DNA of 64,000 nt from Candidatus Magasanikbacteria bacterium RIFCSPHIGHO2_01_FULL_41_23 (GTDB lineage: Bacteria; Patescibacteriota; Patescibacteriia; Magasanikbacterales; UBA922), in NCBI GenBank assembly GCA_001782805.1, contig MFPT01000002.1:5401-69400 (forward strand), written 5' to 3'. Positions 5,764 through 50,783 of the stretch are shown here, piece by piece (position 1 is the stretch's first letter; every line of letters begins with the position of its first letter). A program made the translations under genes and the position numbers. The notes beneath the pieces are model-generated. The model had not been told where the DNA came from. It searched no databases and saw nothing but the letters and a program-made list of their open reading frames with translations.

Positions 5764-7299
5764 TTATAGGCGCGGAAATAAAATTTCACCTTTTTTAATT
5801 AGAATTTCAGCCGGCAAACCACCCCATTTTTTTTGAATATTCAAATGATCTTTCACTGCCATGTTTAATTGAGTAAGAATTTTAGATCCTGTTTCCGGAA
5901 TAATCGGCAACAAGGAAATTGCTACATGGCGCAAGCCTTCAGCCAATTGATATATAAGTTCTTGTATATTTTCTCCTTGTTTGACTTTTTCCCATGGTTT
6001 TTGTTGTGATATTAGTGCATCAACGCGTGACACAAAATTATTTATACCTGCGACAACAGCATCAAACGCATAATTACTGATATTTTTTTCATATTCCTCC
6101 CAAAACAATTTGACATCAAAAATATCTTCTGCGGTTCCATGGATTTTATTTTCACAATATTTTTCAATCATAGTCAAAATCCGCGATGTTAAGTTTCCGA
6201 TTCCATTGACCAGATGCGCCGTATAATATTCTTTAAAGCGCTCTTCAGAAAAATCACCATCATCATAGGCTGGCATCGCGCCTAACAAATAATACCGCAA
6301 GGCATCGGTGCCGATTTGCACCGAACCTAATGAACTAAATTTAGTAACAAGATCAAGTGGATTGATCACATTTCCCAATGATTTACTCATCTTCTCTCCG
6401 TCTGCAGTAATAAAACCATGAATAAAAATTTGTTTTGAGGTCGGCAGTTCAGCAGACAATAACATGGCTTGCCACATGGCCGCTTGCTGACGCAAATTAT
6501 CTTTACCCGCAACCTGTACGCCTGGCCAAAATTTGGCAAAATTATTTTCAGTCTTGCCCTGAGCATAATCCAATGGCCATCCCAAAGTTGAGATATAGTT
6601 GACGAGCGCGTCAAACCAAACATACAACACTTGTTCGGGATCATTTGGCACCGGCACTCCCCACGGCATTTTTGTTTTTAAACGTGAAATACTGAAATCT
6701 TCCAATCCTCGTTCCACAAATTTTTTGATTTCTTGCAAACGATTGGCCGGCACAACAAAATCCGGCTGGTTCTCGTATAATTCCAACAAAGCCGTCTGAT
6801 ATTGAGAAAATCGAAAAAAATAATTTTCTTCATCAATGAATTCCAGATTTAAGTTGGGATGAGTTGGACAATGATCATCAACCAATTCCGAATCGGTTTT
6901 TTCCAACTCACAACCCACGCAGTATTTAATTTTGTATTTTTTCTTGTAAATATCACCTTTGGCCAAACACAATTTCCAAAATTCCTGAGCCGCGGCACAA
7001 TGCTCGGGATCTGTCGTACGAATAAAATTCGTATAACTTAAATTTAACGCGGATTTTAACTCACCAAAGCGCGCCGCATATTCATCGCAATATGTTTGCG
7101 GATCAATTCCTTGCTCAATTGCTTTACGATAAATTTTCAGGCCATGCTCGTCAGTTCCCGTATTAAAAACAACATCTTCTCCCAATAAACGATGATAACG
7201 CGCCAAAACATCGGCCTGAATAATTTCCCAAGCAAAACCAATATGTGGATCCGCGTTCACGTAAGGCAAGGTAGTGGTAATGTAATAACTTGGCTTCAT
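5764..7299 (-). CDS. metG: Methionyl-tRNA synthetase
   Basis: HIGH-class motif PHIGFA and the KMSKS motif (KMSKSLGN) are present. 511 aa, without a C-terminal tRNA-binding extension. Confidence 0.95.
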   Translation of the reverse strand: MKPSYYITTTLPYVNADPHIGFAWEIIQADVLARYHRLLGEDVVFNTGTDEHGLKIYRKAIEQGIDPQTYCDEYAARFGELKSALNLSYTNFIRTTDPEHCAAAQEFWKLCLAKGDIYKKKYKIKYCVGCELEKTDSELVDDHCPTHPNLNLEFIDEENYFFRFSQYQTALLELYENQPDFVVPANRLQEIKKFVERGLEDFSISRLKTKMPWGVPVPNDPEQVLYVWFDALVNYISTLGWPLDYAQGKTENNFAKFWPGVQVAGKDNLRQQAAMWQAMLLSAELPTSKQIFIHGFITADGEKMSKSLGNVINPLDLVTKFSSLGSVQIGTDALRYYLLGAMPAYDDGDFSEERFKEYYTAHLVNGIGNLTSRILTMIEKYCENKIHGTAEDIFDVKLFWEEYEKNISNYAFDAVVAGINNFVSRVDALISQQKPWEKVKQGENIQELIYQLAEGLRHVAISLLPIIPETGSKILTQLNMAVKDHLNIQKKWGGLPAEILIKKGEILFPRL

Positions 7300-7512: not shown

Positions 7513-8184
7513 CTATTTTGAAATGATAATTACAAATTCGCCTTTTTCCGGAATTTTTATGGTCATGATTTCGGTCATTGTTCCGCGATACACAGTTTCA
7601 AATTTTTTCGTTAATTCTCGACAAATACAGATTTTTCTTTCCGGATTTAATGATGCAGCCAATTCAGTCAGGCATTTTTGGATGCGGTGACTTGATTCAT
7701 AGAATACCACGGTCGTTTTAGTTTTGGCTAGCTCTTTAAAAAATGTCTGCCGGCCTTTTTTGTGCGGTGGAAATCCTAAAAAAAGAAAATTGTCCGTGGG
7801 AAATCCGGAAATGGATAACGCCGCGATTAAGGCCGATGATCCTGGAATTGGTATGACAGTAGTCTCTTTATTATTTTTAGTTATTTGTTCAATTAAATAA
7901 TTCCCCGGATCACAAATTCCCGGAGTGCCCGCGTCAGTTACCAACGCCAAATTTTTTCCCTTAGCCAATAATTCTTGAACTTCCTTAATTTTAGCCGAAT
8001 CACTGTATTCATGATAACTTAACGTCGGCGTTTTTATGGCATAATGATTCAGAAGATTTTTCGTCACGCGCGTATCTTCACATAAAATCAAATCAACCGT
8101 GCGCAGTGTTTCCAGCGCGCGCAACGTTATATCTTCCATATTGCCGATGGGAGTAGCGACGATGTATAGTTTTCCATTTTCCAT
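7513..8184 (-). CDS. rsmI: 16S rRNA (cytidine1402-2'-O)-methyltransferase RsmI
   Basis: The N-terminus LYIVATPIGNMEDITLRALETLRTVDLILCEDTR is the canonical RsmI/tetrapyrrole-methylase-fold signature. Confidence 0.9.
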   Translation of the reverse strand: MENGKLYIVATPIGNMEDITLRALETLRTVDLILCEDTRVTKNLLNHYAIKTPTLSYHEYSDSAKIKEVQELLAKGKNLALVTDAGTPGICDPGNYLIEQITKNNKETTVIPIPGSSALIAALSISGFPTDNFLFLGFPPHKKGRQTFFKELAKTKTTVVFYESSHRIQKCLTELAASLNPERKICICRELTKKFETVYRGTMTEIMTIKIPEKGEFVIIISK

Positions 8185-29660: not shown

Positions 29661-30185
29661 ATGTCAAATCCTGTCCCAGGATCAGAACAGCGATTGCCTG
29701 ATAAAAATCGAGAGCAAAATTCCCATCAGCCGGAAAACGAAATAAAACCCGCGGATTTTTTGGTGGAAAAAGAAACGAACGAAGAACTGCAAAAAAAAAT
29801 AAAACACGAGGAGGGATTTTTGGATGATACGATTGCCAAAATGCGTGGTCTTTTGCGTTCCACCAAGCAAAAACCCGTTATAATGCCCAAAGTTCGCGAT
29901 GATATAACCTTAAAAATTGAACATATAATGGAGGCGGATTTGGGTGATGCTTTTAATGTATTAACTCCTCTCCAGCAGCAAGAATTCAAATTAAAGGGCG
30001 AACAAACTGCCAGCTTGATTCGAGAATTATTGCAGCAAACGAAAATTAAGGTAAAAAAAATTTTTGCGCTTTTAGTGGCTTGGCTTAGATTTCTTCCCGG
30101 AATTGATCGCTTTTTTTTGGAACAGGAAGCAAAAATTAAAACCGATCAAATTATTGCGTTGTCGCGCCAAAATAAAAAACTGTAG
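29661..30185 (+). CDS. Hypothetical charged coiled-coil protein
   Basis: 174 aa, Lys/Glu-rich. It lies immediately upstream of, and overlaps, the VirD4-like ATPase gene. Confidence 0.4.
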   Translation: MSNPVPGSEQRLPDKNREQNSHQPENEIKPADFLVEKETNEELQKKIKHEEGFLDDTIAKMRGLLRSTKQKPVIMPKVRDDITLKIEHIMEADLGDAFNVLTPLQQQEFKLKGEQTASLIRELLQQTKIKVKKIFALLVAWLRFLPGIDRFFLEQEAKIKTDQIIALSRQNKKL

Positions 30186-30192
30186 CCGACTT

Positions 30193-32700
30193 ATGGAATC
30201 ATCCCAGATATTTTTGATTATTTTGCTTTATATAGGAGGAATCGGTGTTTTCACCGCTATTTTTTTTATAATTCGCTCATTTGTCCGTCCCATGTATCGC
30301 GCGCAAAAAGCATTTGACCGCGTCATTTTGCAAATCATGGTGCCCAAGGAAAAACGATCAGATAGCAGCGGACAAAGCAACGATGAACGCTTGGAGCAAA
30401 TCAAAGAAGAAATCGGCATCACGGAAACTTTATTTGCCACTTTGGCCGGACTTCGACCCGAGAGTGGTGTTGGTGCCTGGTTTCAAGGACGAAACGATCA
30501 TTTTGCTTTTGAAATGGTCGTACATGATAATTTAATTTATTTTTATTTGGCTGTTCCGCCAAAATATCAATCGTTTATTGAACAACAAATTACGGCGCAA
30601 TATCCGTACGCGCAAGTTGAACAGATTCCTGATTATAATATTTTTTTGCCCAAAAGTCAGATTGTGGGCGCGTATTTAGTGGCTAAAAAATCCAATATTC
30701 TGCCGTTTCGCACGTATAAAACCATGGATTCAGATCCTTTGGCCGCGATTTTAAATATCTTAGCAAAAATTCACGATCACAAAAGCACAGCGGCAATTCA
30801 ATATGTGATTCGGCCGGCCAAAAAAACTTGGCGCCGAAAAGGAATTCGGGTAGTTCGCGCCGTAAATAAAGGCGATTCATTTCACCACGCGCTCAAAAGA
30901 AATCACGTTTTAAAATTTTTCACCATGGTGGCTTCAACTTTGTCCGAACAATTTTTGGGAACAAAAGCTACAGAAAAAACACAGCATCAAATTTCCGCGA
31001 TGGAGCAAGAAATGCTCAAAGGAATTGAAGAAAAATTATCCAAAGGCGGACTGGAAGTGACATTGCGTGTGATTAGTGTGTCTGATGACAAAGAAATGGC
31101 CAAGCTTAATTTGGAAAATATTTTGAACGCGTTCAGTCAATATAATTTTTACCAATACGGCAATGAGTTTAGCGCGCTTTTGCCACGTCAACAGCCAACA
31201 TTAATTCGTGATTTTATTTATCGTTCATTTTTGGAACATCGCTCCTTTATTGTTAACACGCAAGAAATGACCGGATTTTGGCATTTGCCACTGCATTCCA
31301 CGGAAACACCAAATATCAAATGGCTGAGTGGCAGACGTGCGCCGCCGCCCAGTAATCTGCCGGAAACCGGTTTATTGCTGGGTCATGTGATGTATCGTGG
31401 CAGTGACACGCCGATTTATATGAAAGAACCTGATCGTCGACGGCATCTATATATTATTGGTAAATCCGGCGCGGGAAAATCGGTGTTGCTGGGAAATTTA
31501 ATCAGACAGGATATTTTGAATGGCAAAGGTGTTTGTGTGGTTGATCCGCATGGTGATTTGATTGAGGATGTTTTGTCGATTATTCCCAAAAATCGCGCGG
31601 ATGATGTGATAATTTTTGATCCTTCTGATGCGGAGCGGCCGGTGGGACTGAACATGTTGGAAGCGAAAACCGAAGATCAAAAAGATTTTGCCGTGCAGGA
31701 AATGATTTCTATTTTCTATAAATTGTTTCCGCCCGAAATGATTGGTCCAATGTTTGAGCACAATATGCGTAATGTGATGTTGACTTTAATGGGAGATATT
31801 ACTGATACGGGCACGATTATTGATATTCCTCGCATGTTCACGGATGATGCCTATGTTAAAAAATATCTTAAAAAAGTTAAGGATCCCGTGGTTCGAGCTT
31901 TTTGGGAAAAAGAAATGGCCAAAACCAGTGACTTTCATAAATCAGAAATGCTCGGCTATTTAATTTCCAAAGTCGGCCGATTTGTGGAAAACGAAATGAT
32001 GCGCAATATTATGGGCCAACAAAAGTCCGGCTTTGATTTTCGCGAAGTTATGGATCAACAAAAAATTCTCTTGGTCAATTTGGCCAAAGGTAAAACCGGT
32101 GAAGTAAACGCCAAATTATTGGGGCTGATTATTGTGGCCAAACTGCAGATGGCGGCCATGGGACGAGCGGATTTACCCGAACCGGAACGTTTGGATTTTT
32201 ATTTATACATTGATGAGTTTCAAAATTTTGTGACTGATTCAATTGCCACGATTTTGTCTGAAGCGCGTAAATATCGTTTGGATTTAACCATTGCGCATCA
32301 ATATATGGGCCAATTGGTGGATGACAAAGGTCGATCCGCCATTCGCGACGCGGTATTAGGTAATGCCGGCACGATTATGACGGGTCGAATTGGACCCGAT
32401 GACGCGGAGATTTTGGTTAAAGAATTTTCACCGATTTTTGGTGTTTATGATCTGCTCAATCCGCCGCCATTTTCGTATTACACCAAAATGTTAATTGACA
32501 ACGAAGCATCGAAGCCGTTTAATATGCTTGGCTATCCTCCGGTTCAGGGCAATCGCCAACTGGGAGAAGCCATTAAACAATTGGCGCGTCTCAAATATGG
32601 CCGAGATCGACGGATCGTGGAAGCGGAAATTATGGAGCGGACACAGTTGGGCGGCGGGGAAAATAAAGCCAAAACCGATACGATCGAAGCAACATTATAA
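30193..32700 (+). CDS. Membrane-anchored VirD4/TraG/TraD-like (type IV coupling protein family) AAA-like ATPase
   Basis: N-terminal TM helix. Walker A YIIGKSGAGKSVLLGN, VVDPHGDL, Walker B FYLYIDEFQNF, and the C-terminal TraG/VirD4-like region (ARKYRLDLTIAHQYMGQL). The N-terminal 350 aa are paralogous to ORF 49094-50539. Confidence 0.6.
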   Translation: MESSQIFLIILLYIGGIGVFTAIFFIIRSFVRPMYRAQKAFDRVILQIMVPKEKRSDSSGQSNDERLEQIKEEIGITETLFATLAGLRPESGVGAWFQGRNDHFAFEMVVHDNLIYFYLAVPPKYQSFIEQQITAQYPYAQVEQIPDYNIFLPKSQIVGAYLVAKKSNILPFRTYKTMDSDPLAAILNILAKIHDHKSTAAIQYVIRPAKKTWRRKGIRVVRAVNKGDSFHHALKRNHVLKFFTMVASTLSEQFLGTKATEKTQHQISAMEQEMLKGIEEKLSKGGLEVTLRVISVSDDKEMAKLNLENILNAFSQYNFYQYGNEFSALLPRQQPTLIRDFIYRSFLEHRSFIVNTQEMTGFWHLPLHSTETPNIKWLSGRRAPPPSNLPETGLLLGHVMYRGSDTPIYMKEPDRRRHLYIIGKSGAGKSVLLGNLIRQDILNGKGVCVVDPHGDLIEDVLSIIPKNRADDVIIFDPSDAERPVGLNMLEAKTEDQKDFAVQEMISIFYKLFPPEMIGPMFEHNMRNVMLTLMGDITDTGTIIDIPRMFTDDAYVKKYLKKVKDPVVRAFWEKEMAKTSDFHKSEMLGYLISKVGRFVENEMMRNIMGQQKSGFDFREVMDQQKILLVNLAKGKTGEVNAKLLGLIIVAKLQMAAMGRADLPEPERLDFYLYIDEFQNFVTDSIATILSEARKYRLDLTIAHQYMGQLVDDKGRSAIRDAVLGNAGTIMTGRIGPDDAEILVKEFSPIFGVYDLLNPPPFSYYTKMLIDNEASKPFNMLGYPPVQGNRQLGEAIKQLARLKYGRDRRIVEAEIMERTQLGGGENKAKTDTIEATL

Positions 32701-32718: not shown

Positions 32719-33288
32719 ATGGAAAACCAAAATTCCGACACAGTGCCAAAAAAATATCCTGATCCAGCCACTGTTCGCGCGCGATTACAAGTAATTAAAC
32801 GTGAAATTGAGGAATTGATAAAAACTTTTTCCGAAGCAAATCACTCTTCAATCTCAACACCTACTTCAACTTACCTGCCTTTAGCCCATGACGAAGAACT
32901 ATCTTTTTCAGAAATGAGTCGAACTTTGGAAGGCATATTTAATGGTGAAAAAATGATTGGCACGGACAATCAAGAATACCATATCCCGCCCAATTATGCC
33001 AGTAAATCAAAGCTGGTTACCGGCGACCGAATGAAATTAACCATTACTCCAACCGGTTCTTTTATCTACAAGCAAATTGGCCCGATTGAACGTCAGCGTA
33101 TTATTGGAACACTCGACTTTAATCCTGAGCACAATCGCTGGCTGGTTAAAGCGGAAAATGCGGAATATCGCGTATTAACTGCCTCAATCAGTTTTTATAA
33201 AGGCAAAATCGGCGATGGTGTGATTATTCTAGCTCCTCAAATCGGAATGAGCGAATGGGCCGCAGTTGATCATTTGATTGCCAAATAA
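32719..33288 (+). CDS. Hypothetical protein (189 aa)
   Basis: Complete ORF directly downstream of the ATPase, and likely co-transcribed with it. Confidence 0.45.
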   Translation: MENQNSDTVPKKYPDPATVRARLQVIKREIEELIKTFSEANHSSISTPTSTYLPLAHDEELSFSEMSRTLEGIFNGEKMIGTDNQEYHIPPNYASKSKLVTGDRMKLTITPTGSFIYKQIGPIERQRIIGTLDFNPEHNRWLVKAENAEYRVLTASISFYKGKIGDGVIILAPQIGMSEWAAVDHLIAK

Positions 33289-42954: not shown

Positions 42955-43872
42955 CTATCTATTTTTCGCTTCCTCCAAAATTTTCTTCACTTCAATTGTT
43001 ATTGCTCCAAACCTGCCTCCCAGAGCATTAGGATTAGTCTCAACAATTTTTAATAAATTAGGAATATCCGCCTCAACGATAAGTTGAGCGTCAATGAGTT
43101 TTTGAATGCATACTTGCTCCACAATCTCCATATTATAACTTACTGCGACTCGTTTGTCTTTATTTTCCTGTGGTTTTGGAGCTGCCGGTTTTTCTTCCTC
43201 CGGATCCGGTTCATTGAAACCTCCAAATTCTATCGTTGGGACAGTAATAGATGTGAGTGATGGATCGGGTTGTTTTTCGATCGGCGTCTTCACCTCTAAT
43301 CTTTTGGGACTTAATGGTTTATCAGGTAGAGGTCTCTCTCCAATCTTCTTATAATGGATGTCATTATTAATAAAACCAAGGGTGATGTGAAAATCCTTCC
43401 TTTCTAAACCAAGGCACTCGCGAAAAGCCGTAGCTTCAGGAATCTCAATAGCAACAAAACAAACTTTTTTGTCTTTATCGGCTTTTACCATTCCCGGCTG
43501 GCTTCCATCGATATACCCGACTCCATTCACTTTTACCGGCGACTGACCACTTTGCAACTGACTGGACAAGCGATTAAGTTGCTCAATCTGCTCATCTGTC
43601 AGCCTACTCAAAATTCCCTTTTCTTGCTGTTCAATAATCGTTACATGAAATTTGCCTCTTGACTTAAACGGCAGAGACATTTTTGCTTGCATCGTCTCTA
43701 GTGTTGGAGTCAAATCCGTATTAACTGTTATTTCAATGGACTTCATGCGAGCCAAACTCTCGCGCGTGAGCTCAGCTAATTTTGGTGCAAAATCCGATAC
43801 CGAAGAAGTTAATGGCTGCTCTGGTTTAATAATTGCTAGAGACTCTGAAATTGGTCGTGTGACTTCAGGCAT
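42955..43872 (-). CDS. 2H-phosphoesterase-superfamily-like protein (LigT / cyclic phosphodiesterase fold) with a Pro/Lys-rich linker and a C-terminal domain
   Basis: Two H-x-T-x motifs, each preceded by a hydrophobic residue: KFHVTII and DFHITLG, about 85 aa apart. That spacing is typical of 2H enzymes. Confidence 0.5.
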   Translation of the reverse strand: MPEVTRPISESLAIIKPEQPLTSSVSDFAPKLAELTRESLARMKSIEITVNTDLTPTLETMQAKMSLPFKSRGKFHVTIIEQQEKGILSRLTDEQIEQLNRLSSQLQSGQSPVKVNGVGYIDGSQPGMVKADKDKKVCFVAIEIPEATAFRECLGLERKDFHITLGFINNDIHYKKIGERPLPDKPLSPKRLEVKTPIEKQPDPSLTSITVPTIEFGGFNEPDPEEEKPAAPKPQENKDKRVAVSYNMEIVEQVCIQKLIDAQLIVEADIPNLLKIVETNPNALGGRFGAITIEVKKILEEAKNR

Positions 43873-43882
43873 AGATAGTACA

Positions 43883-45244
43883 TTATTTTGAAAAAAAATT
43901 CGTTACGACTCGCCTAAAATCTTCTGCATTCAACAATGAGGTTTTTGACGCTGCTATCAAACTTCCGCCTGCTACACAAACAGTTGGATCTCCAATTCCG
44001 AGATATTCTTTTCCGGGCCGAAGAGTCGTCCATGTTTTTAATAACTTTGTTTCTTCTTCACTGAGAGTGCCCTCTTTTTCCTTTTGTCGCAACGAAAGCA
44101 ATATAGGCTCACGTTTTTCGCGTTCAGCGTCATTAAATATAGCTTCAAGGGATGTGAGATCAAACAAATCAAGTGACTCCACCTTCATACCGATATCATA
44201 ATTATCTCCACCTTTTTTACGATCCTGACCCGCATAAACCGCCACAATCGTTTCTGGTGGCATCCGCATGTAAGCCATGTTGGTCACCGCAAGAGGACTT
44301 AATTTTGTCTGCCCAAAAATCAGGAGTGTAACTTCCAAATTTGCCCCCTCCTTTGTTCTGATGGTCACACGACGTTGTTCAGCGGATTCAAACTCTTGAT
44401 TAAATGCCTCGACATCTGTCAAGGATTTTTCACGTCCAATTCTTAATAATTCTTTGAATTCATCTGAAAATGTCAACCCATTTGTTGTATCAAGATCTTC
44501 GAAATTAATCTGAAATCCTTCAGATTCTGCTTTTGCACACGCATTAAAAATCGCAAACATTTGTGTGATCAGCTCGCCATGAAATTGTTCGCTCACCGCT
44601 TTCGAGCGTCCTGCCTTTTCTTCTTTTGGAATTTCTGCAGAACGCCAAATCGCGCCAATCGCTGCGTGCATTTTATCAAAAAGAACATTTTTTAGGCTTC
44701 CGAAATAGCCGGGTAAACTTTTAATAAATCGTTGCGGATCCGTTTCGCCAAAGCGTCCATAGTCCACAAGATTCACAATTTCTCCCAATTTTTGTGTAAA
44801 TTTTGGAAGACCGCTCACGGATCGTGTGTCCACAAGAATTTTTGTGAGATATGTCGCCGTGATTGAATCAAGATCACTGTCAATATGACCGCTCACCCCT
44901 TTTATGTTTTTTTCTTGGATTAGAGCCAAAACCTCATCCGGGAAATCCGCGACCATTTTCGCCGCACAACGTCGAGTCCCGCCTTCTGGCATCTCTAATA
45001 CAGACGCATCAACACCATGATGGTCAATAATTCCATTTCGAATCGTCCAGCGATAAATTTCATCAACTTCTTCCGGAGTTTGAGGAGAACGCATTTCCAA
45101 AGGTGGAATAATCGGTTGGCCAGTATCAACCACGACCACATCGGGAGACAAGCCTTCGGCACGTCCCGCTTTTTGCACACTAGCAAAACAATTTTCCGGA
45201 CTCGTTGGCCTCACTTCCATTTCAGGTGTTTCTGTATCTCGCAT
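43883..45244 (-). CDS. Hypothetical protein (453 aa) with a DHH-like tripeptide (IIDHHGVD)
   Basis: Complete ORF and the first gene of the four-gene minus-strand operon. Assignment to the DHH family is weak: the DxD motif I and the GGGH motif were not found. Confidence 0.5.
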   Translation of the reverse strand: MRDTETPEMEVRPTSPENCFASVQKAGRAEGLSPDVVVVDTGQPIIPPLEMRSPQTPEEVDEIYRWTIRNGIIDHHGVDASVLEMPEGGTRRCAAKMVADFPDEVLALIQEKNIKGVSGHIDSDLDSITATYLTKILVDTRSVSGLPKFTQKLGEIVNLVDYGRFGETDPQRFIKSLPGYFGSLKNVLFDKMHAAIGAIWRSAEIPKEEKAGRSKAVSEQFHGELITQMFAIFNACAKAESEGFQINFEDLDTTNGLTFSDEFKELLRIGREKSLTDVEAFNQEFESAEQRRVTIRTKEGANLEVTLLIFGQTKLSPLAVTNMAYMRMPPETIVAVYAGQDRKKGGDNYDIGMKVESLDLFDLTSLEAIFNDAEREKREPILLSLRQKEKEGTLSEEETKLLKTWTTLRPGKEYLGIGDPTVCVAGGSLIAASKTSLLNAEDFRRVVTNFFSK

Positions 45245-45322: not shown

Positions 45323-45332
45323 CCCCCCCCCC
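45323..45332. repeat. C10 homopolymeric tract in a divergent promoter region
   Basis: tttacccccccccc-a-cc lies between the start of the minus-strand operon (45244) and the start of the plus-strand surface-protein operon (45647). Nearby direct repeats tgtgcataa(c/g)t occur at about 45358 and 45394. Confidence 0.7.
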
Positions 45333-45646
45333 ACCTGCTTTCAGCAAATATTTACTGTGCATAACTTATGTAAATAATTCCATGTGCATAAGTCCATTTG
45401 ACAAGGATTTTTTTTATGTTTACACTTTCATTACAATTTATCCTCAATAATGCTGGAAGTAAGGTAACCCAATGGGAATTCCTTCACTGTGCCGCAACGG
45501 TAATTTCGATTTATGGAGCTTGCTCTGAGCGAGCGAAGCGAGTCGAAGAGTCCGGTCTTCATTATAGAGCGTAACCCGCGCAGGAAAATGCCTTTTTAGG
45601 CTTATTTATTTCTCTGCGCGGAGAAATTTTTTATTTAAATAAGACT

Positions 45647-46237
45647 ATGATGAGATGTTTAAAAATCCTGCGCCGTCACTGGTTAGCTACCATTATTTTA
45701 TTCGGTAGTTTGATTCTCATGATTATATATGGGAATAGTCAAAACATCGAATCGAATAGTAATAAACTCCTCAATCAAGAATCACAAAGTGTAGAAATAA
45801 AGTTAAAAGAAAAATCAATCTCTGTTCCTACAAATCAAAATTATGACACGGAAAATAAAAATGAAAATAACACTTCAACGCAAACCAACAGTCCAAAAAC
45901 CATAGAACAAAAACCAAACGCAGACGCTCTTGAAAAAAATCTAATCGCGGCCAAAATTATCATTGGTGAAAATGAGTATTTAATCAATGTTACGCCTTCA
46001 AGTTCAGTGTATGACGCGCTTATTCAGATGAACAAATCCGGCCAAGCCAGTTTTAATTTCAAAGAATTTAGTGGACTCGGATATTTTGTAGAAGGAATCA
46101 ATGGTAAAACAAGTGACAAATTACGTGGACGATATTGGATTTATTATATTAACGGCGTCAAAGCGCAAATGGGGATTTCCCAATACATTCTTAAATCAAA
46201 CGACATAATAACCTGGAAATATGAAAATCAAGAATAA
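45647..46237 (+). CDS. Membrane-anchored DUF4430-like (transcobalamin-like C-terminal domain) protein
   Basis: N-terminal TM and an Asn/Ser-rich linker. The C-terminus RYWIYYINGVKAQMGISQYILKSNDIITWKYE fits the DUF4430 pattern W.Y.VNG......Y.L..GD.I.W.Y. Confidence 0.45.
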   Translation: MMRCLKILRRHWLATIILFGSLILMIIYGNSQNIESNSNKLLNQESQSVEIKLKEKSISVPTNQNYDTENKNENNTSTQTNSPKTIEQKPNADALEKNLIAAKIIIGENEYLINVTPSSSVYDALIQMNKSGQASFNFKEFSGLGYFVEGINGKTSDKLRGRYWIYYINGVKAQMGISQYILKSNDIITWKYENQE

Positions 46238-48536
46238 CGCGTTCGGATATTTAATTTCCCTTTTGGTTTTAACTGTATTATTTTTTCCCGTACTAACACG
46301 CGCGGAAGAAGAAAATTCAACCACTACGACAACTACAGCAACACTCACAGAACAAACTACCACTACTACACCGACGATAACAGAAACACCGACTGCACTA
46401 GAAACTACGACCATAACAGAAATATCCAGCTCAACCCCAGTTACTGTTTTAGATTTTGCCCAATTAACGATTCGCATTGACAATACGATTATTTTTTCTG
46501 ATTCTATCGCGATTAGCCCTGCCACGACTACAGTAACTGATAATCAAAATAAAAACTATGATGTTGTGGATAACACTGTTTTAGGAATGATATTTAATGC
46601 TGATTCAGCCACAACGACGTTTGCCGTTACTGATCTGGCCTATTATTCTTCGTTTGATTCATTTTTAATTAATTGTATTGCAGTCGCGGACACGTCGTCA
46701 TGCTATAACTGGCAATACACGGTCAATGATGTCTATCCCTACATGGGAATTGATGATTACATATTGAAAAATAATGATGATGTCTATTTGTATTTTGGCA
46801 ATCAAACGCGATTTAACTTGGCAACATCTACTATTACCACTGCAGAACCACTAGCTATTACAACTGAAAAATATGATTATCGAAATAATCAATGGACTCC
46901 ACGACCCAATGTAACAGTGGGAGCAACCAAACCTGATCCTAATAATCCATGGAGTCCAATTGTAGTTACTTCAACACTCACCAATGAATTCGGTTTGGCC
47001 AATCTTTATATAAGCGTGACCGGTACATACAACGTCGGAATTAGTGAAGATTATTATTATCCGACCCAAGCAGTTACAGTTCTTGATATTATTTTAAATA
47101 ATGAAACAACGACAACTACCGTAACATCAACTCCGACAACGACGACGTCAACAATAGAAGTCATAAATTCAAATAATTCCGGTGGATCAGGTTCTACTAC
47201 TGCTGAAATTATTCCGACCATGGATGTTGTGAAAGCAATTGAATTCTTAAAAGCGCAACAAAATAAAACCACTGGCGCGATTGGTTTCCCGAACGGAGTC
47301 GAGGGACTCACCACAAGTGGTTCAGGCACTCTCTATAGTGATTGGGCCGCAATCGCCTTTGGCAGCGACGATAATTTGGGCGAAGCCAAAAATCTTTTGG
47401 CGACATATTTAAAAACCGATCCCAGTCCGGGTACAGCGGCGACCGATTTTGAGCGACGCGCCATGGCCATAATGTCTTTGGGAATCAATCCGTATTCGGG
47501 AACCAAAACCAATTATATTGCGGAAATTCTTAAAACATATCAAGCCAATCAATTTGGCGACAGCGGATTGGTCAATGATGATATTTTTGCGCTTTTTCCT
47601 CTGATTAAAGCCGGTTATACAATCAGTGACACAGAAATTAAAAATAGTGTGGCCTTTATTTTGTCGCGCCAAAATCAAAATGGTGGTTGGGAAAGTCCGG
47701 ACTTAACCGCCGCGGCTGTCCAAGCTTTATCTTTGGTCAAATCACAAATCGGAGTAAATGACGCATTAATTAAAGCTAAAGAATATTTAAAAACCAGTAC
47801 AAAGAATAATGGCAGTATTGGTGATAATGTTTTTTCCACCAGCTGGGGAATTCAGGCAATTGTTTCACTTAATGAATCAATTAATTCCTGGAATGGAACA
47901 AATGAAAATCCGTTAACGTATTTGGCCAAGCAACAGCAAACTGATGGCGGATTTGAATCAGCATCCGGCTCGCTTGATAATCGCATCTGGGCAACAAGTT
48001 ATGCTATTCCCGCGGCACAAAATAAAGTTTGGGCGGATATTCTTGTTTCATTTGCTAAACCGGTCATACAAAATACTGTTGAGACCAATCAAACCAGTTT
48101 TGGTAGTGGCGGCAGCGGAGAATTAGTCACAAGTACACCAACAATCACACCGGCAATCATAAACCAAGCAACATCAACTCCAAACAATAGCGAATCAGAA
48201 AAACTTTCCTCCAGACCAATTGAAACAGCAGTAAACGAATCACCGGAAAACAATAATGTTAAAGAAGTAGTCATAGAAAAAATGACAGAGATTGCCAAGA
48301 TTGAATCAAAATTTTCTAATTCACCATCTGTTGAGTTAGCCCAAAACCAATTAACGGTTCTAAATGAATCAGAATCTCCTATTGACAGAAATAATAATGT
48401 CGGCGAAATCATAACCACTGTGATCCCGTTAAAAAACACATCACCAATTGCTGGTCGCGAATTTGCTGGAGCCGCGACAATGGCTAGCAGCGCTGGCGCT
48501 TATTTAGCCTGGCGATTCTTCCAATCGTTAATCTAA
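46221..48536 (+). CDS. Large secreted Thr-rich surface protein with a DUF4430-like domain and prenyltransferase/squalene-oxidase-like (alpha/alpha-toroid) repeats
   Basis: Signal peptide, then poly-Thr tracts. DDYILKNNDDVYLYFGNQ is DUF4430-like. The repeats GGWESPDLTAAAVQALSL and QQTDGGFESASGSLDNRIWATSYAIPAA are prenyltransferase-like. The C-terminal tail is hydrophobic. Confidence 0.55.
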   Translation: MKIKNNAFGYLISLLVLTVLFFPVLTRAEEENSTTTTTTATLTEQTTTTTPTITETPTALETTTITEISSSTPVTVLDFAQLTIRIDNTIIFSDSIAISPATTTVTDNQNKNYDVVDNTVLGMIFNADSATTTFAVTDLAYYSSFDSFLINCIAVADTSSCYNWQYTVNDVYPYMGIDDYILKNNDDVYLYFGNQTRFNLATSTITTAEPLAITTEKYDYRNNQWTPRPNVTVGATKPDPNNPWSPIVVTSTLTNEFGLANLYISVTGTYNVGISEDYYYPTQAVTVLDIILNNETTTTTVTSTPTTTTSTIEVINSNNSGGSGSTTAEIIPTMDVVKAIEFLKAQQNKTTGAIGFPNGVEGLTTSGSGTLYSDWAAIAFGSDDNLGEAKNLLATYLKTDPSPGTAATDFERRAMAIMSLGINPYSGTKTNYIAEILKTYQANQFGDSGLVNDDIFALFPLIKAGYTISDTEIKNSVAFILSRQNQNGGWESPDLTAAAVQALSLVKSQIGVNDALIKAKEYLKTSTKNNGSIGDNVFSTSWGIQAIVSLNESINSWNGTNENPLTYLAKQQQTDGGFESASGSLDNRIWATSYAIPAAQNKVWADILVSFAKPVIQNTVETNQTSFGSGGSGELVTSTPTITPAIINQATSTPNNSESEKLSSRPIETAVNESPENNNVKEVVIEKMTEIAKIESKFSNSPSVELAQNQLTVLNESESPIDRNNNVGEIITTVIPLKNTSPIAGREFAGAATMASSAGAYLAWRFFQSLI

Positions 48537-48576
48537 TATCGTGGACTAGCTCAATCGTTTGTAGATTGATATAATA

Positions 48577-49149
48577 TTGAATGGCATTATGAACAAAATA
48601 AATAAAGAAAACACATCGTATTCTCAAACTAGTTTATTAGTTGCGATTGGACTCGTAATTTTTGGCGCAATTGCTCGTCTTGTTCCTCATCCAGCTAACT
48701 TTGCGCCACTCGGCGCTATTGCAATTTTTGGCGGATTATTTTTGCCTCGCAAACTGGCGATATTAGTTCCTTTATCAGCTATGCTTGTCAGTGACATTGT
48801 AATTGGCTTTTATTCCTGGTCAATAATGCTGGTAGTGTATTTAAGTTTTGCCTTAACCGCGTTTGCCAGCACCAAAATTAAACATTCTTTTAAGGCAATT
48901 CTCGGCACAACTTTAGCCGGATCAATTTTATTTTACCTCACCACCAATGCCGCAGTCTGGGCATTTGGCACTATGTACGCGCACGATTTTGCCGGCCTGA
49001 TGCAGAGTTACACCATGGCCATCCCCTTTTTCCGCAATAGTTTATTGAGTGATTTATTCTATACGAGTGTTATGGTAACCAGTTATATTCTTATTACAAA
49101 TTTTCATACCAATTATCATATTCAATCACTTCACCGGAATCAGTCGTAA
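48577..49149 (+). CDS. Polytopic membrane protein (ECF-transporter S-component-like topology)
   Basis: 190 aa, 5-6 TM helices. Its position downstream of the DUF4430 proteins suggests a substrate-capture role; this is an inference. Confidence 0.4.
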   Translation: MNGIMNKINKENTSYSQTSLLVAIGLVIFGAIARLVPHPANFAPLGAIAIFGGLFLPRKLAILVPLSAMLVSDIVIGFYSWSIMLVVYLSFALTAFASTKIKHSFKAILGTTLAGSILFYLTTNAAVWAFGTMYAHDFAGLMQSYTMAIPFFRNSLLSDLFYTSVMVTSYILITNFHTNYHIQSLHRNQS

Positions 49150-50539
49150 AATTTTTACTCTTTGTTGTTGATGTAACTTTTGTGATACCTGACGGATTAA
49201 GTGGTTTATTCAACAAGGTAACAGCATCGGGACCACCTAAATATTCGACCGGTAAACCAACCGGAGGTTCCGCTTGTTTGGTGGCGGCTTTGGAAACCAA
49301 CGGAGTTTTAACATGCGACATAGGAAAATGCCAAATCGTCGCCAATTCTTCAATATTCAAAATACAAGTGGGACTTTTGGTATTCATGGAACGCTTGCGA
49401 TAGGCTTCAAATAATTTTGCTGGCTTATCTTTCTTTTTGCCTTTTGGTGCTTCCACGGCGACAATAGAATTGGCACTGGGAATATTATATTGATTAATCG
49501 CTCCCAATAATAAACTAGCTCCACGCCGAGGATTAAATGATTCTTTGCGCGCCACATATACCGCTCGCATTTTTGCCTTAAACGCCAACTTGGTAATTTT
49601 CTGTTCCATCAGCTCAACTATTTTATTTGTTCCCGGAGTTAAACGCACGGTATCAGCATGTTCATCTTCTGCTTCCTCCTTTGGACTGGCTTCGCGATTA
49701 AAAACTTGATCACCAATTAAGACCAAACTTTTCATTAAAAATTCCACAAATTTATCGCCGATATTTTCCATCGTATCATGCTCGGCAATTCCCAGTACTT
49801 CCTTTACTTTATTTATTGCGCCTTCTTTCCAATCATTATTGATTGGCTCAACCAATATCTGCCACCACATTTGCTCGCCCGGACCCAAACGAGTAAAACT
49901 TTCCAAAAAAGTTCCCATCGGATCTTTTAAGACCGTATCTTTGGAAATTGAATGCTCAAATTCGCGATAGGATCGAAGCGGATACGCACTATGCTCGGCC
50001 AAACCAAAATCGTTAACCCATAAATCATGGGTTTCATTCGGAAATTTTTCCGGAACCAAATGTACATAATCTTCAATTTCGGTAATTTCCGCATCCGGAT
50101 ATTGCGCATAAATTGACGCCTCCACCAAATCGCGAAAAACCGATTCAGTCCAAACAACAAATTGAATGTAACCCTCGATACTGACAATTTCAAAACTAAA
50201 CCAGCGTTGAACATAGCCGTCTTTAATTTTTTCCTTAAGTCCGGATGGTGCCAACGCACCCGCCACATGCGAAAATAACTGTTCAACCGCCATTGGTGTC
50301 TGTACATTTAAAGCTGGAATATCAATGGCTAAAATCACTGGTTTCCAATCATGAACATATTTTTCTTCTTTCAATTCAATAAAAAAATGCAAAGCCTGAC
50401 TAAAGATCGGTCCGATCATCAAAAGCCAGCCCATGACCGCAAACCATTCAATGGCTATGACGACAACACCTTGAGCCAAAAAAAAATTCAAGGCATGGAC
50501 AATAGTTGCGCCGTCAATAGCAAAAAAACCAAAGTCCAT
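49094..50539 (-). CDS. Membrane-anchored hypothetical protein, paralog of the N-terminal domain of the VirD4-like ATPase (30193-32700)
   Basis: IYAQYPDAEITEIEDY...YPLRSYREFEHS...FLESFTRLGPGEQMWWQILVEP aligns with ITAQYPYAQVEQIPDY...LPFRTYKTMDSD...ILAKIHDHKSTAAIQYVIRP of the ATPase protein. No Walker motifs. The 3' end overlaps the convergent gene 48577-49149 by 56 nt. Confidence 0.55.
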   Translation of the reverse strand: MDFGFFAIDGATIVHALNFFLAQGVVVIAIEWFAVMGWLLMIGPIFSQALHFFIELKEEKYVHDWKPVILAIDIPALNVQTPMAVEQLFSHVAGALAPSGLKEKIKDGYVQRWFSFEIVSIEGYIQFVVWTESVFRDLVEASIYAQYPDAEITEIEDYVHLVPEKFPNETHDLWVNDFGLAEHSAYPLRSYREFEHSISKDTVLKDPMGTFLESFTRLGPGEQMWWQILVEPINNDWKEGAINKVKEVLGIAEHDTMENIGDKFVEFLMKSLVLIGDQVFNREASPKEEAEDEHADTVRLTPGTNKIVELMEQKITKLAFKAKMRAVYVARKESFNPRRGASLLLGAINQYNIPSANSIVAVEAPKGKKKDKPAKLFEAYRKRSMNTKSPTCILNIEELATIWHFPMSHVKTPLVSKAATKQAEPPVGLPVEYLGGPDAVTLLNKPLNPSGITKVTSTTKSKNFTTDSGEVIEYDNWYENL

Positions 50540-50540
50540 A

Positions 50541-50711
50541 TTAATGATGGTGGAGACGATTGATTATAATAAAATAAACTACGAGTACGAGCGGAGTGGC
50601 AAACCACCAACCATAAATTCCCGCGATATAACCGCCGGCGTAGGCCACGCCACACAGGATGGTACACAAAAAAGCAATTATTTTTTTTAATTTATCTTCT
50701 GACATGGACAT
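50541..50711 (-). CDS. Small membrane protein (56 aa), translationally coupled to the downstream gene
   Basis: Translated by hand: MSMSEDKLKKIIAFLCTILCGVAYAGGYIAGIYGWWFATPLVLVVYFIIINRLHHH. Its stop codon overlaps the ATG of ORF 49094-50539 (TAATATG). It falls below the ORF-track size cut-off. Confidence 0.3.
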   Translation of the reverse strand: MSMSEDKLKKIIAFLCTILCGVAYAGGYIAGIYGWWFATPLVLVVYFIIINRLHHH

Positions 50712-50783
50712 ATAATACAATTATATTTATAAATAGCGCTCAATATAATTGTATTATACCACACTTATGAAATGAATCGAAGA

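Follow-up and report, generated by a model that had tools for sequence, protein, structure and literature searches.

The DNA analysed here, called the window throughout, is a stretch of 64,000 nucleotides (nt) of contig MFPT01000002.1 from Candidatus Magasanikbacteria bacterium RIFCSPHIGHO2_01_FULL_41_23, a member of the Candidate Phyla Radiation (CPR), and the subject of this study is a gene cluster within it that begins with a cobalamin riboswitch and encodes two surface proteins and one membrane protein. On the plus strand, a promoter-like site (45398-45426), the core of an adenosylcobalamin (AdoCbl)-type riboswitch aptamer (45432-45579) and an expression platform (45576-45632) are followed by gene 1 (45647-46237), encoding a surface-tethered DUF4430 protein of 196 amino acids (aa), gene 2 (46221-48536), encoding a 771-aa giant, and gene 3 (48577-49149), encoding a DUF6580 membrane protein. 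Genes 1 and 2 share 17 nt, and genes 2 and 3 are spaced by 40 nt. On the minus strand, a gene for a 481-aa DUF8128 protein (49094-50539) and a small open reading frame (ORF) with a transmembrane (TM) segment (50541-50720) converge on gene 3. A preliminary description of this DNA had treated the five ORFs as one surface locus, and all five lie at the coordinates that it gave. The functional unit extends further upstream, to about 45398, owing to a cobalamin riboswitch at 45428-45622 that was absent from that description. Taken together, the region 45398-49149 (+) is very probably a cobalamin-riboswitch-controlled corrinoid uptake operon.

The relatives used for comparison were collected by scanning species-representative genomes with an alignment of DUF6580; at least 551 were found, and 80 loci entered the comparison. 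Their gene content was scored with domain hidden Markov models iterated from the window proteins, and many loci were assigned as CPR-like from gene content. The riboswitch itself was recognised by an E-value-mode Rfam scan, in which the model RF01482 (clan CL00101) matched full length at 45428-45622 (+), its end lying 25 nt from the start codon of gene 1, with helix P1 at approximately 45438-45574. The score of 33.6 bits (E 0.0021 in 6 kb, 1.4e-4 in 381 nt) is below the Rfam gathering threshold of 50 bits, and at gathering thresholds the whole window returned two tRNAs only. In the alignment to RF01482 the core motifs are intact, and the helices P1, P3, P4 and P5 as well as the 3' hairpin are present. 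The low score results from loop expansions of 14 and 32 nt, which are lineage-specific, are confined to peripheral loops and form stable hairpins, and from two mismatches (non-canonical pairs) in P1. Orthologous copies in two relatives exceed the RF01482 cut-off (L002, 53.6 bits; L005, 53.7 bits), and others exceed the RF00174 cut-off of 31.5 bits (L072, 33.1; L034, 43; L052, 36.2; L051, 111.8 bits).

For the search across relatives, a covariance model (R1) was built from three Magasanikbacteria copies and an Rfam-derived structure; a MAFFT alignment of six diverse riboswitches was of too poor quality for model building. R1 was run on both strands of the window and 82 loci (1.09 Mb), and every one of its 45 matches at E<=1 lies upstream of DUF6580 and on the same strand, with no match on the opposite strand. 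The model recovers the riboswitch upstream of the same operon in 38 further species, and the window holds one such copy only. In the R1 alignment 90.6% of the cells are paired, compared with 68% in shuffled and 36-48% in slid controls, and compensatory changes occur in 21 of 23 pairs; fitting the alignment to R1 biases these values toward the structure, and the margin is large. When a riboswitch was called at R1 E<=3e-4 or at the respective Rfam cut-off, it was present in 46 of the 80 species loci, with weak candidates in 3 more. The element is a CPR-specific variant of the AdoCbl riboswitch, which standard Rfam thresholds partly miss.

Downstream of the aptamer, a P13-like hairpin (45576-45621) runs with its 3' arm into a GGAG element resembling a Shine-Dalgarno sequence (45620-45623), which is followed by a U-run (45627-45632) and the start codon of gene 1. 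Folding of this expression platform gave -22.9 kcal/mol (z = -3.6). The hairpin, the GGAG element and the U-run are kept in L001, L002 and L007, and the Rfam AdoCbl model itself contains a P13-like hairpin. This arrangement points to a putative OFF switch, acting by occlusion of the ribosome-binding site and/or by termination. The scoring of the window copy could also be taken to mean that the riboswitch is a decayed relic and that the operon is constitutive in this organism, as the 33.6 bits against a cut-off of 50, the two non-canonical P1 pairs and the many CPR loci without a detectable riboswitch would suggest. However, no core motif or helix has been lost, the insertions are peripheral and stably folded, and the elements downstream of the aptamer are conserved; moreover, L001, the closest syntenic relative, carries similar insertions and is also missed by Rfam, yet reaches 94 bits with R1. 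A relic is therefore regarded as quite improbable. The promoter-like site ahead of the riboswitch (TTGACA, 17-nt spacer, TACACT) matches 10 of 12 consensus positions and stops approximately 6 nt ahead of the riboswitch match; it is a consensus match only, and the region holds 20 such sites versus 17.7 expected, which is no enrichment. The divergent intergenic region also contains ten consecutive C residues (45323-45332), approximately 65 nt ahead of the promoter-like -35 box; this run may be prone to slippage or may be a feature of the sequencing.

The presence of DUF4430, the C-terminal domain of transcobalamins (PMC4350170), in two proteins of the locus, as had been proposed, was borne out by Pfam in both cases, with scores above the gathering cut-off of 23.8 bits. 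In the gene 1 product, the domain (PF14478, the transcobalamin beta-domain or SLBB domain) occupies aa 119-193 (E 3.7e-15, 56.6 bits) and is preceded by an N/E/S/K-rich linker and by an N-terminal hydrophobic TM segment (aa 10-31), in agreement with the anchoring ascribed to this protein before. The gene 2 product corresponds at 100% identity to A2821_00265, a hypothetical protein at NCBI, and is built of many more segments. A signal peptide evident in the sequence (aa 1-28) and a Thr-rich linker (aa 29-77, 47% Thr) lead to a DUF4430/SLBB domain (aa 78-195, nt 46452-46805), in which Pfam matches aa 156-193 (E 1.1e-7, 32.7 bits). Then come an immunoglobulin (Ig)-like all-beta sandwich (aa 196-290, nt 46806-47090), a second Thr-rich linker (aa 294-326, 39% Thr), an alpha/alpha toroid (aa 330-625, nt 47208-48095), a disordered linker of about 120 aa (aa 626-745) and a C-terminal helix (aa 746-770), which is called a putative anchor because of its weak hydrophobicity. 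The Ig-like sandwich and the disordered linker were placed from the AlphaFold model (AF2). Both the SLBB domain and the toroid were modelled with a predicted local distance difference test (pLDDT) score above 90, so that the two modules meet in one secreted protein. The Thr-rich linkers had already been noted in the preliminary description.

The same description had also assigned prenyltransferase or squalene-cyclase repeats to the giant. The Pfam matches that would name them remained below threshold (SQHop_cyclase_C, 21.2 versus 26.1 bits; Cobalamin_bind, PF01122, 15.8 versus 25 bits, E 0.007; prenyltransferase and TED matches likewise), whereas the toroid as such was recovered in the AlphaFold model, by a profile of 117 giant homologs, which matches squalene-hopene cyclase (SHC) at E 2e-8, and by Foldseek, which returned single-domain cyclase-like toroids (E 5e-8). 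Single-sequence searches of the PDB with the three operon proteins gave nothing meaningful. The nearest solved toroid folds are squalene-hopene-cyclase-like proteins, drimenyl-diphosphate synthase and the TED domains of complement and alpha-2-macroglobulin. These fold relations might mean that the giant is a surface enzyme or adhesin with a terpene-cyclase-like or thioester-domain-like toroid and without a B12 role, in which case only gene 1 and DUF6580 would matter; the sub-threshold PF01122 score and the presence of a homologous toroid protein in 40 of the 80 loci, leaving about half of them without it, fit such a reading as well. However, the DxDD cyclase motif (D.DD) was not found in the 771-aa protein, where the DxDD of SHC aligns to S-P-D-L, and the thioester motif CGEQ (C.EQ) was not found either, the only cysteines (C152, C161) both lying in DUF4430. 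The lack of both motifs argues against cyclase and thioester roles, and these functions were rejected for the giant. Moreover, the toroid is always fused to or located beside DUF4430 in riboswitch-controlled operons, in either domain order, PF01122 is precomputed in 21 of the 120 giant homologs among the matches listed, and in transcobalamin the toroid and the SLBB domain jointly clamp B12 (PMC1796856). An enzyme or adhesin apart from B12 is thus considered unlikely, and a contribution of the toroid to the corrinoid binding site is the somewhat better supported assumption.

The likeness to transcobalamin proposed earlier holds for the architecture, a toroid combined with DUF4430 in reversed order, and not for family membership. 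The giant was rejected as a member of the transcobalamin family on the basis of its PF01122 score, the lack of transcobalamin in the Foldseek top 50 and the reversed order. The giant has the order beta, Ig, alpha, and those CPR proteins that have alpha before beta match Prenyltrans or SQHop_cyclase, not PF01122. Proteins of this second kind, with the transcobalamin order of toroid then DUF4430, are approximately 600 aa long (524 aa in L060) and occur in L048, L053, L060, L073 and L076, with L073 (3801-5609 and 5860-6420) as an example; those of L073 and L048 have an Ig-like domain after DUF4430. Between the toroid-DUF4430 gene and the small DUF4430 gene, L048, L053 and L073 carry a conserved 182-aa ORF, designated c21.

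Gene 3 encodes 190 aa when read from TTG 48577 and 186 aa from ATG 48589; as Met5 is the conserved start in homologs, initiation at ATG 48589 appears more likely. The protein scores 151.5 bits with DUF6580 (PF20221; cut-off 27 bits, E 3e-44), while Pfam gave no ECF_trnsprt match at E<=1. The earlier view of an S-component-like membrane protein therefore stands with respect to the fold, and the family is DUF6580 instead of ECF_trnsprt. The AF2 model (pLDDT 90, predicted template modelling score, pTM, 0.81) contains helices at residues 8-35, 43-55, 58-76, 81-98, 105-130, 138-147 and 149-189 and shows the six-helix S-component fold. Its top Foldseek matches in the PDB are all S-components of energy-coupling factor (ECF) transporters, and the best superposition, with a template modelling score (TM-score) of 0.61-0.66, is that with cobalamin-bound BtuM. 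A profile of 115 DUF6580 homologs found one PDB sequence only, 6FNP chain A (E 0.005, about 130 residues aligned), which has 182 aa and is labelled 'Membrane protein'. The structure 6FNP is ECF-CbrT, a vitamin B12 ECF transporter (PMC5997447), and chain A was taken as the CbrT S-component because the aligned fragment matches Pfam ECF_trnsprt at 3e-11.

In spite of these similarities, DUF6580 was not assigned to either known family. Membership of CbrT or ECF_trnsprt was rejected, as there was no ECF_trnsprt match and the profile link (E 0.005) is remote. Membership of BtuM was rejected as well, as the window protein contains 0 cysteines and none is invariant among the 115 homologs. The invariant residues of DUF6580 lie in a PHPxNF loop after helix 1 (R34, H38, N41) and in the motif SDxxIGFY (D73, G77, Y79), with further invariant positions at TN, Y134 and PFFxN; that these residues take part in binding the ligand is speculative. 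With 6,103 representatives at 50% identity and E<=1e-3 (4,242 at 1e-10), the family is large, and it occurs in CPR/Patescibacteria, Ignavibacteria and Bacteroidota. One homolog, P0390 (337 aa), appears to be a natural fusion in which an extra TM helix stands between DUF6580 (aa 5-165) and DUF4430 (aa 255-329), and its topology fits an outward-facing binder that passes substrate to the membrane domain. Another one, P0386 (372 aa), which joins the C-terminus of a toroid to DUF6580, resembles a merged or truncated gene call and was not used as evidence.

The arrangement of genes around DUF6580 is conserved across the 80 loci. One or more DUF4430 genes stand upstream of DUF6580 on the same strand in 65 of them, directly adjacent in 63, and DUF6580 is the sole membrane-transporter-like gene in the conserved clusters. 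Three layouts can be distinguished. In Magasanikbacteria, the riboswitch is followed by DUF4430, the giant, in some cases a third small DUF4430 gene, and DUF6580. This third gene (124-143 aa) was observed between the giant and DUF6580 in about 9 loci (7667-8053 in L001 and L004; 7661-8038 in L002 and L006) and is missing in the window, where the gap is 40 nt. In other CPR, the order is NrdJ, BtuR, an optional riboswitch, an optional toroid-DUF4430-Ig protein, DUF4430 and DUF6580. The first of these genes encodes an AdoCbl-dependent class II ribonucleotide reductase (RNR; NF006417, 1050 bits versus a cut-off of 961, with NrdJ_Z also above its cut-off), and BtuR matches PF02572 at E 1e-61.

In Ignavibacteria, the riboswitch precedes an optional DUF5074 beta-propeller protein, a TonB-dependent receptor, DUF6580 and MetH. 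The receptor adjoins DUF6580 in L051, L057, L068, L069, L080 and L081, and its best NCBIfam match is TonB-B12, at a score below the cut-off of that model. MetH contains all B12 domains, and the riboswitches are canonical RF00174 members (77-112 bits). In L080, DUF6580 lies between two strong RF00174 riboswitches (6759-6911 and 7562-7722; 81 and 77 bits); one of them controls DUF6580, standing directly upstream of it with no DUF4430 gene, and the other controls the TonB receptor operon. The context of riboswitch, receptor and MetH in Ignavibacteria, together with the absence of DUF4430 in L080, therefore ties DUF6580 to B12 independently of DUF4430, and this tie holds in two unrelated phyla. 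DUF5074/YncE-like beta-propeller proteins beside the TonB-B12-like receptor, found in L051 (3267-4412) and L080 (9805-10866), may have a BtuG-like surface B12-binding role. The suggestion of a corrinoid-capture apparatus in an auxotrophic organism, made in the preliminary description, is thereby strengthened by the riboswitch, by the conserved order of riboswitch, DUF4430 and DUF6580, and by the linkage to NrdJ, BtuR, MetH and a BtuB-like receptor.

On this basis, the following mode of action can be proposed. When AdoCbl is low in the cell, the leader RNA would permit expression of the three genes. The two binders, held on long flexible tethers, would then capture free corrinoids outside the cell, as their homology and context suggest, and would hand them to DUF6580, whose six or seven helices in an S-component fold may carry the corrinoid across the membrane. 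DUF6580 might do so either alone, like BtuM, or docked on an ECF module encoded elsewhere, like CbrT. Binding of AdoCbl to the aptamer would allow the downstream hairpin to form, to hide the GGAG element and/or to terminate transcription at the U-run, and the operon would be switched off. In this scheme DUF6580 is probably the translocator.

A different assignment of the substrate also has to be considered, namely that the operon is regulated by B12 and that DUF6580 imports cobalt, a precursor (cobinamide) or a lower ligand, or merely docks the binders while the real transporter is located elsewhere. Cobalamin riboswitches control cobalt transporters in other bacteria, and no energising module was found beside DUF6580. 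The cobalt S-component CbiM is among the DUF6580 fold matches (TM-score 0.5), and CbrT also carries cobinamide (PMC5997447). However, no transporter-like gene other than DUF6580 belongs to the conserved clusters, and in Ignavibacteria it lies between a B12-type TonB receptor and MetH. Moreover, the clusters contain BtuR without nucleotide-loop assembly genes, which fits the uptake of complete corrinoids, and the partner domain DUF4430 is a domain that binds corrinoids in transcobalamins. Import of another substrate, or a docking role, is consequently held to be unlikely as compared with transport of corrinoids by DUF6580.

Several points weigh against corrinoid uptake as the function of the operon or limit its evidence. 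Every functional statement made here on the operon is an inference from sequence, predicted structure and context. The window riboswitch falls short of its Rfam threshold, its high R1 score arises by construction, and in about 25 CPR loci no riboswitch was detected beside the DUF4430-DUF6580 pair, 6 of these loci being cut at a contig edge. Among the binders, the toroid of the giant is closer to terpene-cyclase and thioester-domain toroids than to transcobalamin, PF01122 is sub-threshold, transcobalamin does not appear in the Foldseek top 50, and the C-terminal helix is weakly hydrophobic. For DUF6580, the Foldseek E-values are modest (>=0.02), the sequence match to CbrT is marginal, and the fusion P0390 is a single case that is possibly a merged gene call. 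Furthermore, neither an ECF module nor BtuR, NrdJ or MetH was found among the approximately 47 ORFs scanned in the window. With no B12-dependent enzyme in these 64 kb, the use of B12 by this organism is therefore deduced from its relatives. Genes for EcfA and EcfT were not found among the conserved neighbours in the 80 loci either. Group II S-components are normally unlinked to the ECF module, and unlinked modules are common.

At 7513-8184 (-), beside MetRS, an ORF encodes a 223-aa protein of the TP_methylase family ('corrin/porphyrin methylase'). The size and location of this ORF point to the rRNA methyltransferase RsmI rather than to an enzyme of B12 biosynthesis. Two genes at 42955-45244 (-) diverge from the operon; one product, of 453 aa, has a weak DHH-family match only, and the other, of 305 aa, is a 2H phosphoesterase of the 'Swiss Army Knife' type (2H-SAK, E 8e-17).

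The two convergent genes downstream of DUF6580 have to be separated from the operon. The 481-aa protein (49094-50539, -) carries N-terminal TM helices and belongs to DUF8128 (PF26449), which is precomputed for the identical protein P0241 and for 118 of 119 other homologs among the matches listed; more than 2,160 homologs occur in CPR, all of them unnamed. The small TM ORF (50541-50720, -), of 56 aa from ATG 50711 or 59 aa from TTG 50720, shows a weak match to TrbC/VirB2 (pilin) at E 0.24 and is coupled to the DUF8128 gene through the stop-start junction TAATATG, as had been reported. An ORF of 53-60 aa with a TM segment always precedes DUF8128, the pair is conserved in about 24-25 loci, and the unit sits downstream of secD-secF. 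Upstream of the small ORF, at approximately 50752-50760, an extended -10-like box (TGGTATAAT) was noticed. DUF8128 is convergent to DUF6580 in 21-25 loci of Magasanikbacteria type, often at a distance of 0-50 nt, which could be read as a sign that all five genes form one surface apparatus. However, DUF8128 lies on the opposite strand, has its own small-ORF partner and its own promoter-like box, and follows secDF. It stands 0.7-5 kb and other genes away from DUF6580 in L002, L005, L011, L045 and L046, and loci of Saccharibacteria type and of Ignavibacteria retain the B12 cluster without it. As DUF8128 is separated from or absent in other B12 loci, it is therefore a neighbour and not an operon member, and the earlier inclusion of the 481-aa and 56-aa genes in the locus could not be upheld.

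As a variant of the same view, the overlap of 56 nt between the 3' ends of the DUF6580 (+) and DUF8128 (-) genes (49094-49149) might be due to a frameshift or an assembly error; the preliminary description had left the choice between such an error, or an annotation problem, and a real antisense overlap. Both C-termini match homologs to the last residue, which speaks for the real overlap and against the error. The C-terminal motif FTTDSGEVIEYDNWYENL of DUF8128, ending at the stop codon, is kept in L001, L002, L005 and L007, and the tail of DUF6580, itself non-conserved, matches that of its closest homolog P0002. On the sequence evidence the overlap is thus genuine, and the conserved end of DUF8128 together with the homolog-matched tail of DUF6580 indicates that the DUF6580 tail was overprinted on the C-terminus of DUF8128. 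The similar tail of P0002 suggests the same overlap there. In other relatives the stop-to-stop gaps are 0, 2, 6, 7, 16, 27 nt and so on. Both a single five-gene apparatus and an erroneous overlap are accordingly regarded as very improbable.

Elsewhere in the window, an 865-aa protein (30103-32700, +) combines an N-terminal half (aa 20-450) that is a paralog of DUF8128 with a C-terminal half of a VirD4/TraG/TrwB-type coupling ATPase (DUF87, TrwB_AAD_bind, TraG-D_C), which suggests that DUF8128 proteins are related to type-IV-secretion or DNA-transfer-like machinery. The ORFs flanking this gene (29661-30185 and 32719-33288) have no Pfam match.

The significance of the proposed riboswitch-controlled corrinoid uptake operon lies in several directions. 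In many auxotrophs without BtuCDF, the passage of B12 across the cytoplasmic membrane is unexplained (PMC6072759, PMC5997447), and the locus and its relatives provide a coherent genomic case for the uncharacterised DUF6580 family as another B12 transporter. CPR bacteria are ultra-small, for the most part uncultured, and rely on other cells for their metabolism; for them, the locus would mean regulated scavenging of a cofactor tied to DNA-precursor synthesis through class II RNR. The locus is also relevant to the suggestion that animal transcobalamin is of bacterial origin. As a tentative extension, which at present is somewhat doubtful, DUF6580 may constitute a third family of S-component-like cobalamin importers independent of an ECF module, fed in CPR by tethered transcobalamin-like binders. 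If so, it would be the first S-component transporter to receive its substrate from a dedicated binding protein outside the cytoplasm, combining the binding-protein-dependent mechanism with that of S-components, and the main B12 entry route for the AdoCbl-dependent RNR on which many CPR depend. The open-access texts searched contained nothing relevant on DUF6580, on B12 uptake or cobalamin riboswitches in CPR, or on new S-component B12 transporters. The link between DUF6580 and B12 and the CPR riboswitch regulon appear to be new to the literature, whereas the binder half was already predicted in 2007.

That prediction was made in silico by Burroughs, Balaji, Iyer and Aravind (2007, PMC1796856), who named DUF4430 the SLBB domain and proposed B12 scavenging for bacterial SLBB surface proteins. 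They described secreted or anchored SLBB proteins with an alpha/alpha toroid attached on one side or the other, as well as Ig-fold fusions. The operons often contained another, paralogous SLBB gene, together with CbiO/CbiQ-like genes, and the hosts lacked B12 synthesis. The binder half of the present operon fits this prediction and is therefore not new in kind. Their systems, however, belong to Gram-positive bacteria and some archaea and include ECF-module genes, whereas here, in CPR, DUF6580 stands alone under a variant AdoCbl riboswitch; riboswitches receive 0 mentions in that work, and the membrane family DUF6580 is not included. The riboswitch of the window differs in turn from RF01482, which it matches over its full length and in its core, by its 14-nt and 32-nt loop expansions. 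Transcobalamin, intrinsic factor and haptocorrin consist of the same modules as the giant, a toroid and DUF4430/SLBB, which clamp one corrinoid; the giant has the reversed order and is tethered through long Thr-rich linkers, unlike the soluble transcobalamin. The BtuG/BtuB system of Bacteroides (Wexler et al., 2018, PMC6143338) likewise passes B12 from a high-affinity binder exposed at the surface to a transporter under a cobalamin riboswitch. BtuG is a beta-propeller whose fold is unrelated to the window binders, and BtuB is an outer-membrane TonB-dependent transporter.

Among the transporters, CbrT of Lactobacillus delbrueckii (Santos et al., 2018, PMC5997447) is a small S-component for cobalamin and cobinamide and the sole PDB sequence match of DUF6580. 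CbrT belongs to ECF_trnsprt and DUF6580 does not. CbrT requires EcfAA'T, none of which was found beside DUF6580 in the 80 loci, and it works without a dedicated extracellular binder, unlike the DUF6580 operon. BtuM of Thiobacillus denitrificans (PDB 8C7P and 8OVV; Rempel et al., 2018, PMC6072759) gave the best superposition with DUF6580, although its sequence showed no similarity to the DUF6580 profile at E<=10. The BtuM family has as its defining feature a cobalt-ligating cysteine that is invariant (Cys80 in T. denitrificans; PMC6072759) and that has no counterpart in the cysteine-free window protein or at any invariant position of the DUF6580 family. On the other hand, BtuM and DUF6580 both occur beside a BtuB-like receptor in diderms (for DUF6580 in Ignavibacteria, not in the CPR host), and neither has an adjacent ECF module. 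The operon would follow the logic of the known systems of B12 capture and import, with a surface binder delivering to an S-component-type carrier under riboswitch feedback.

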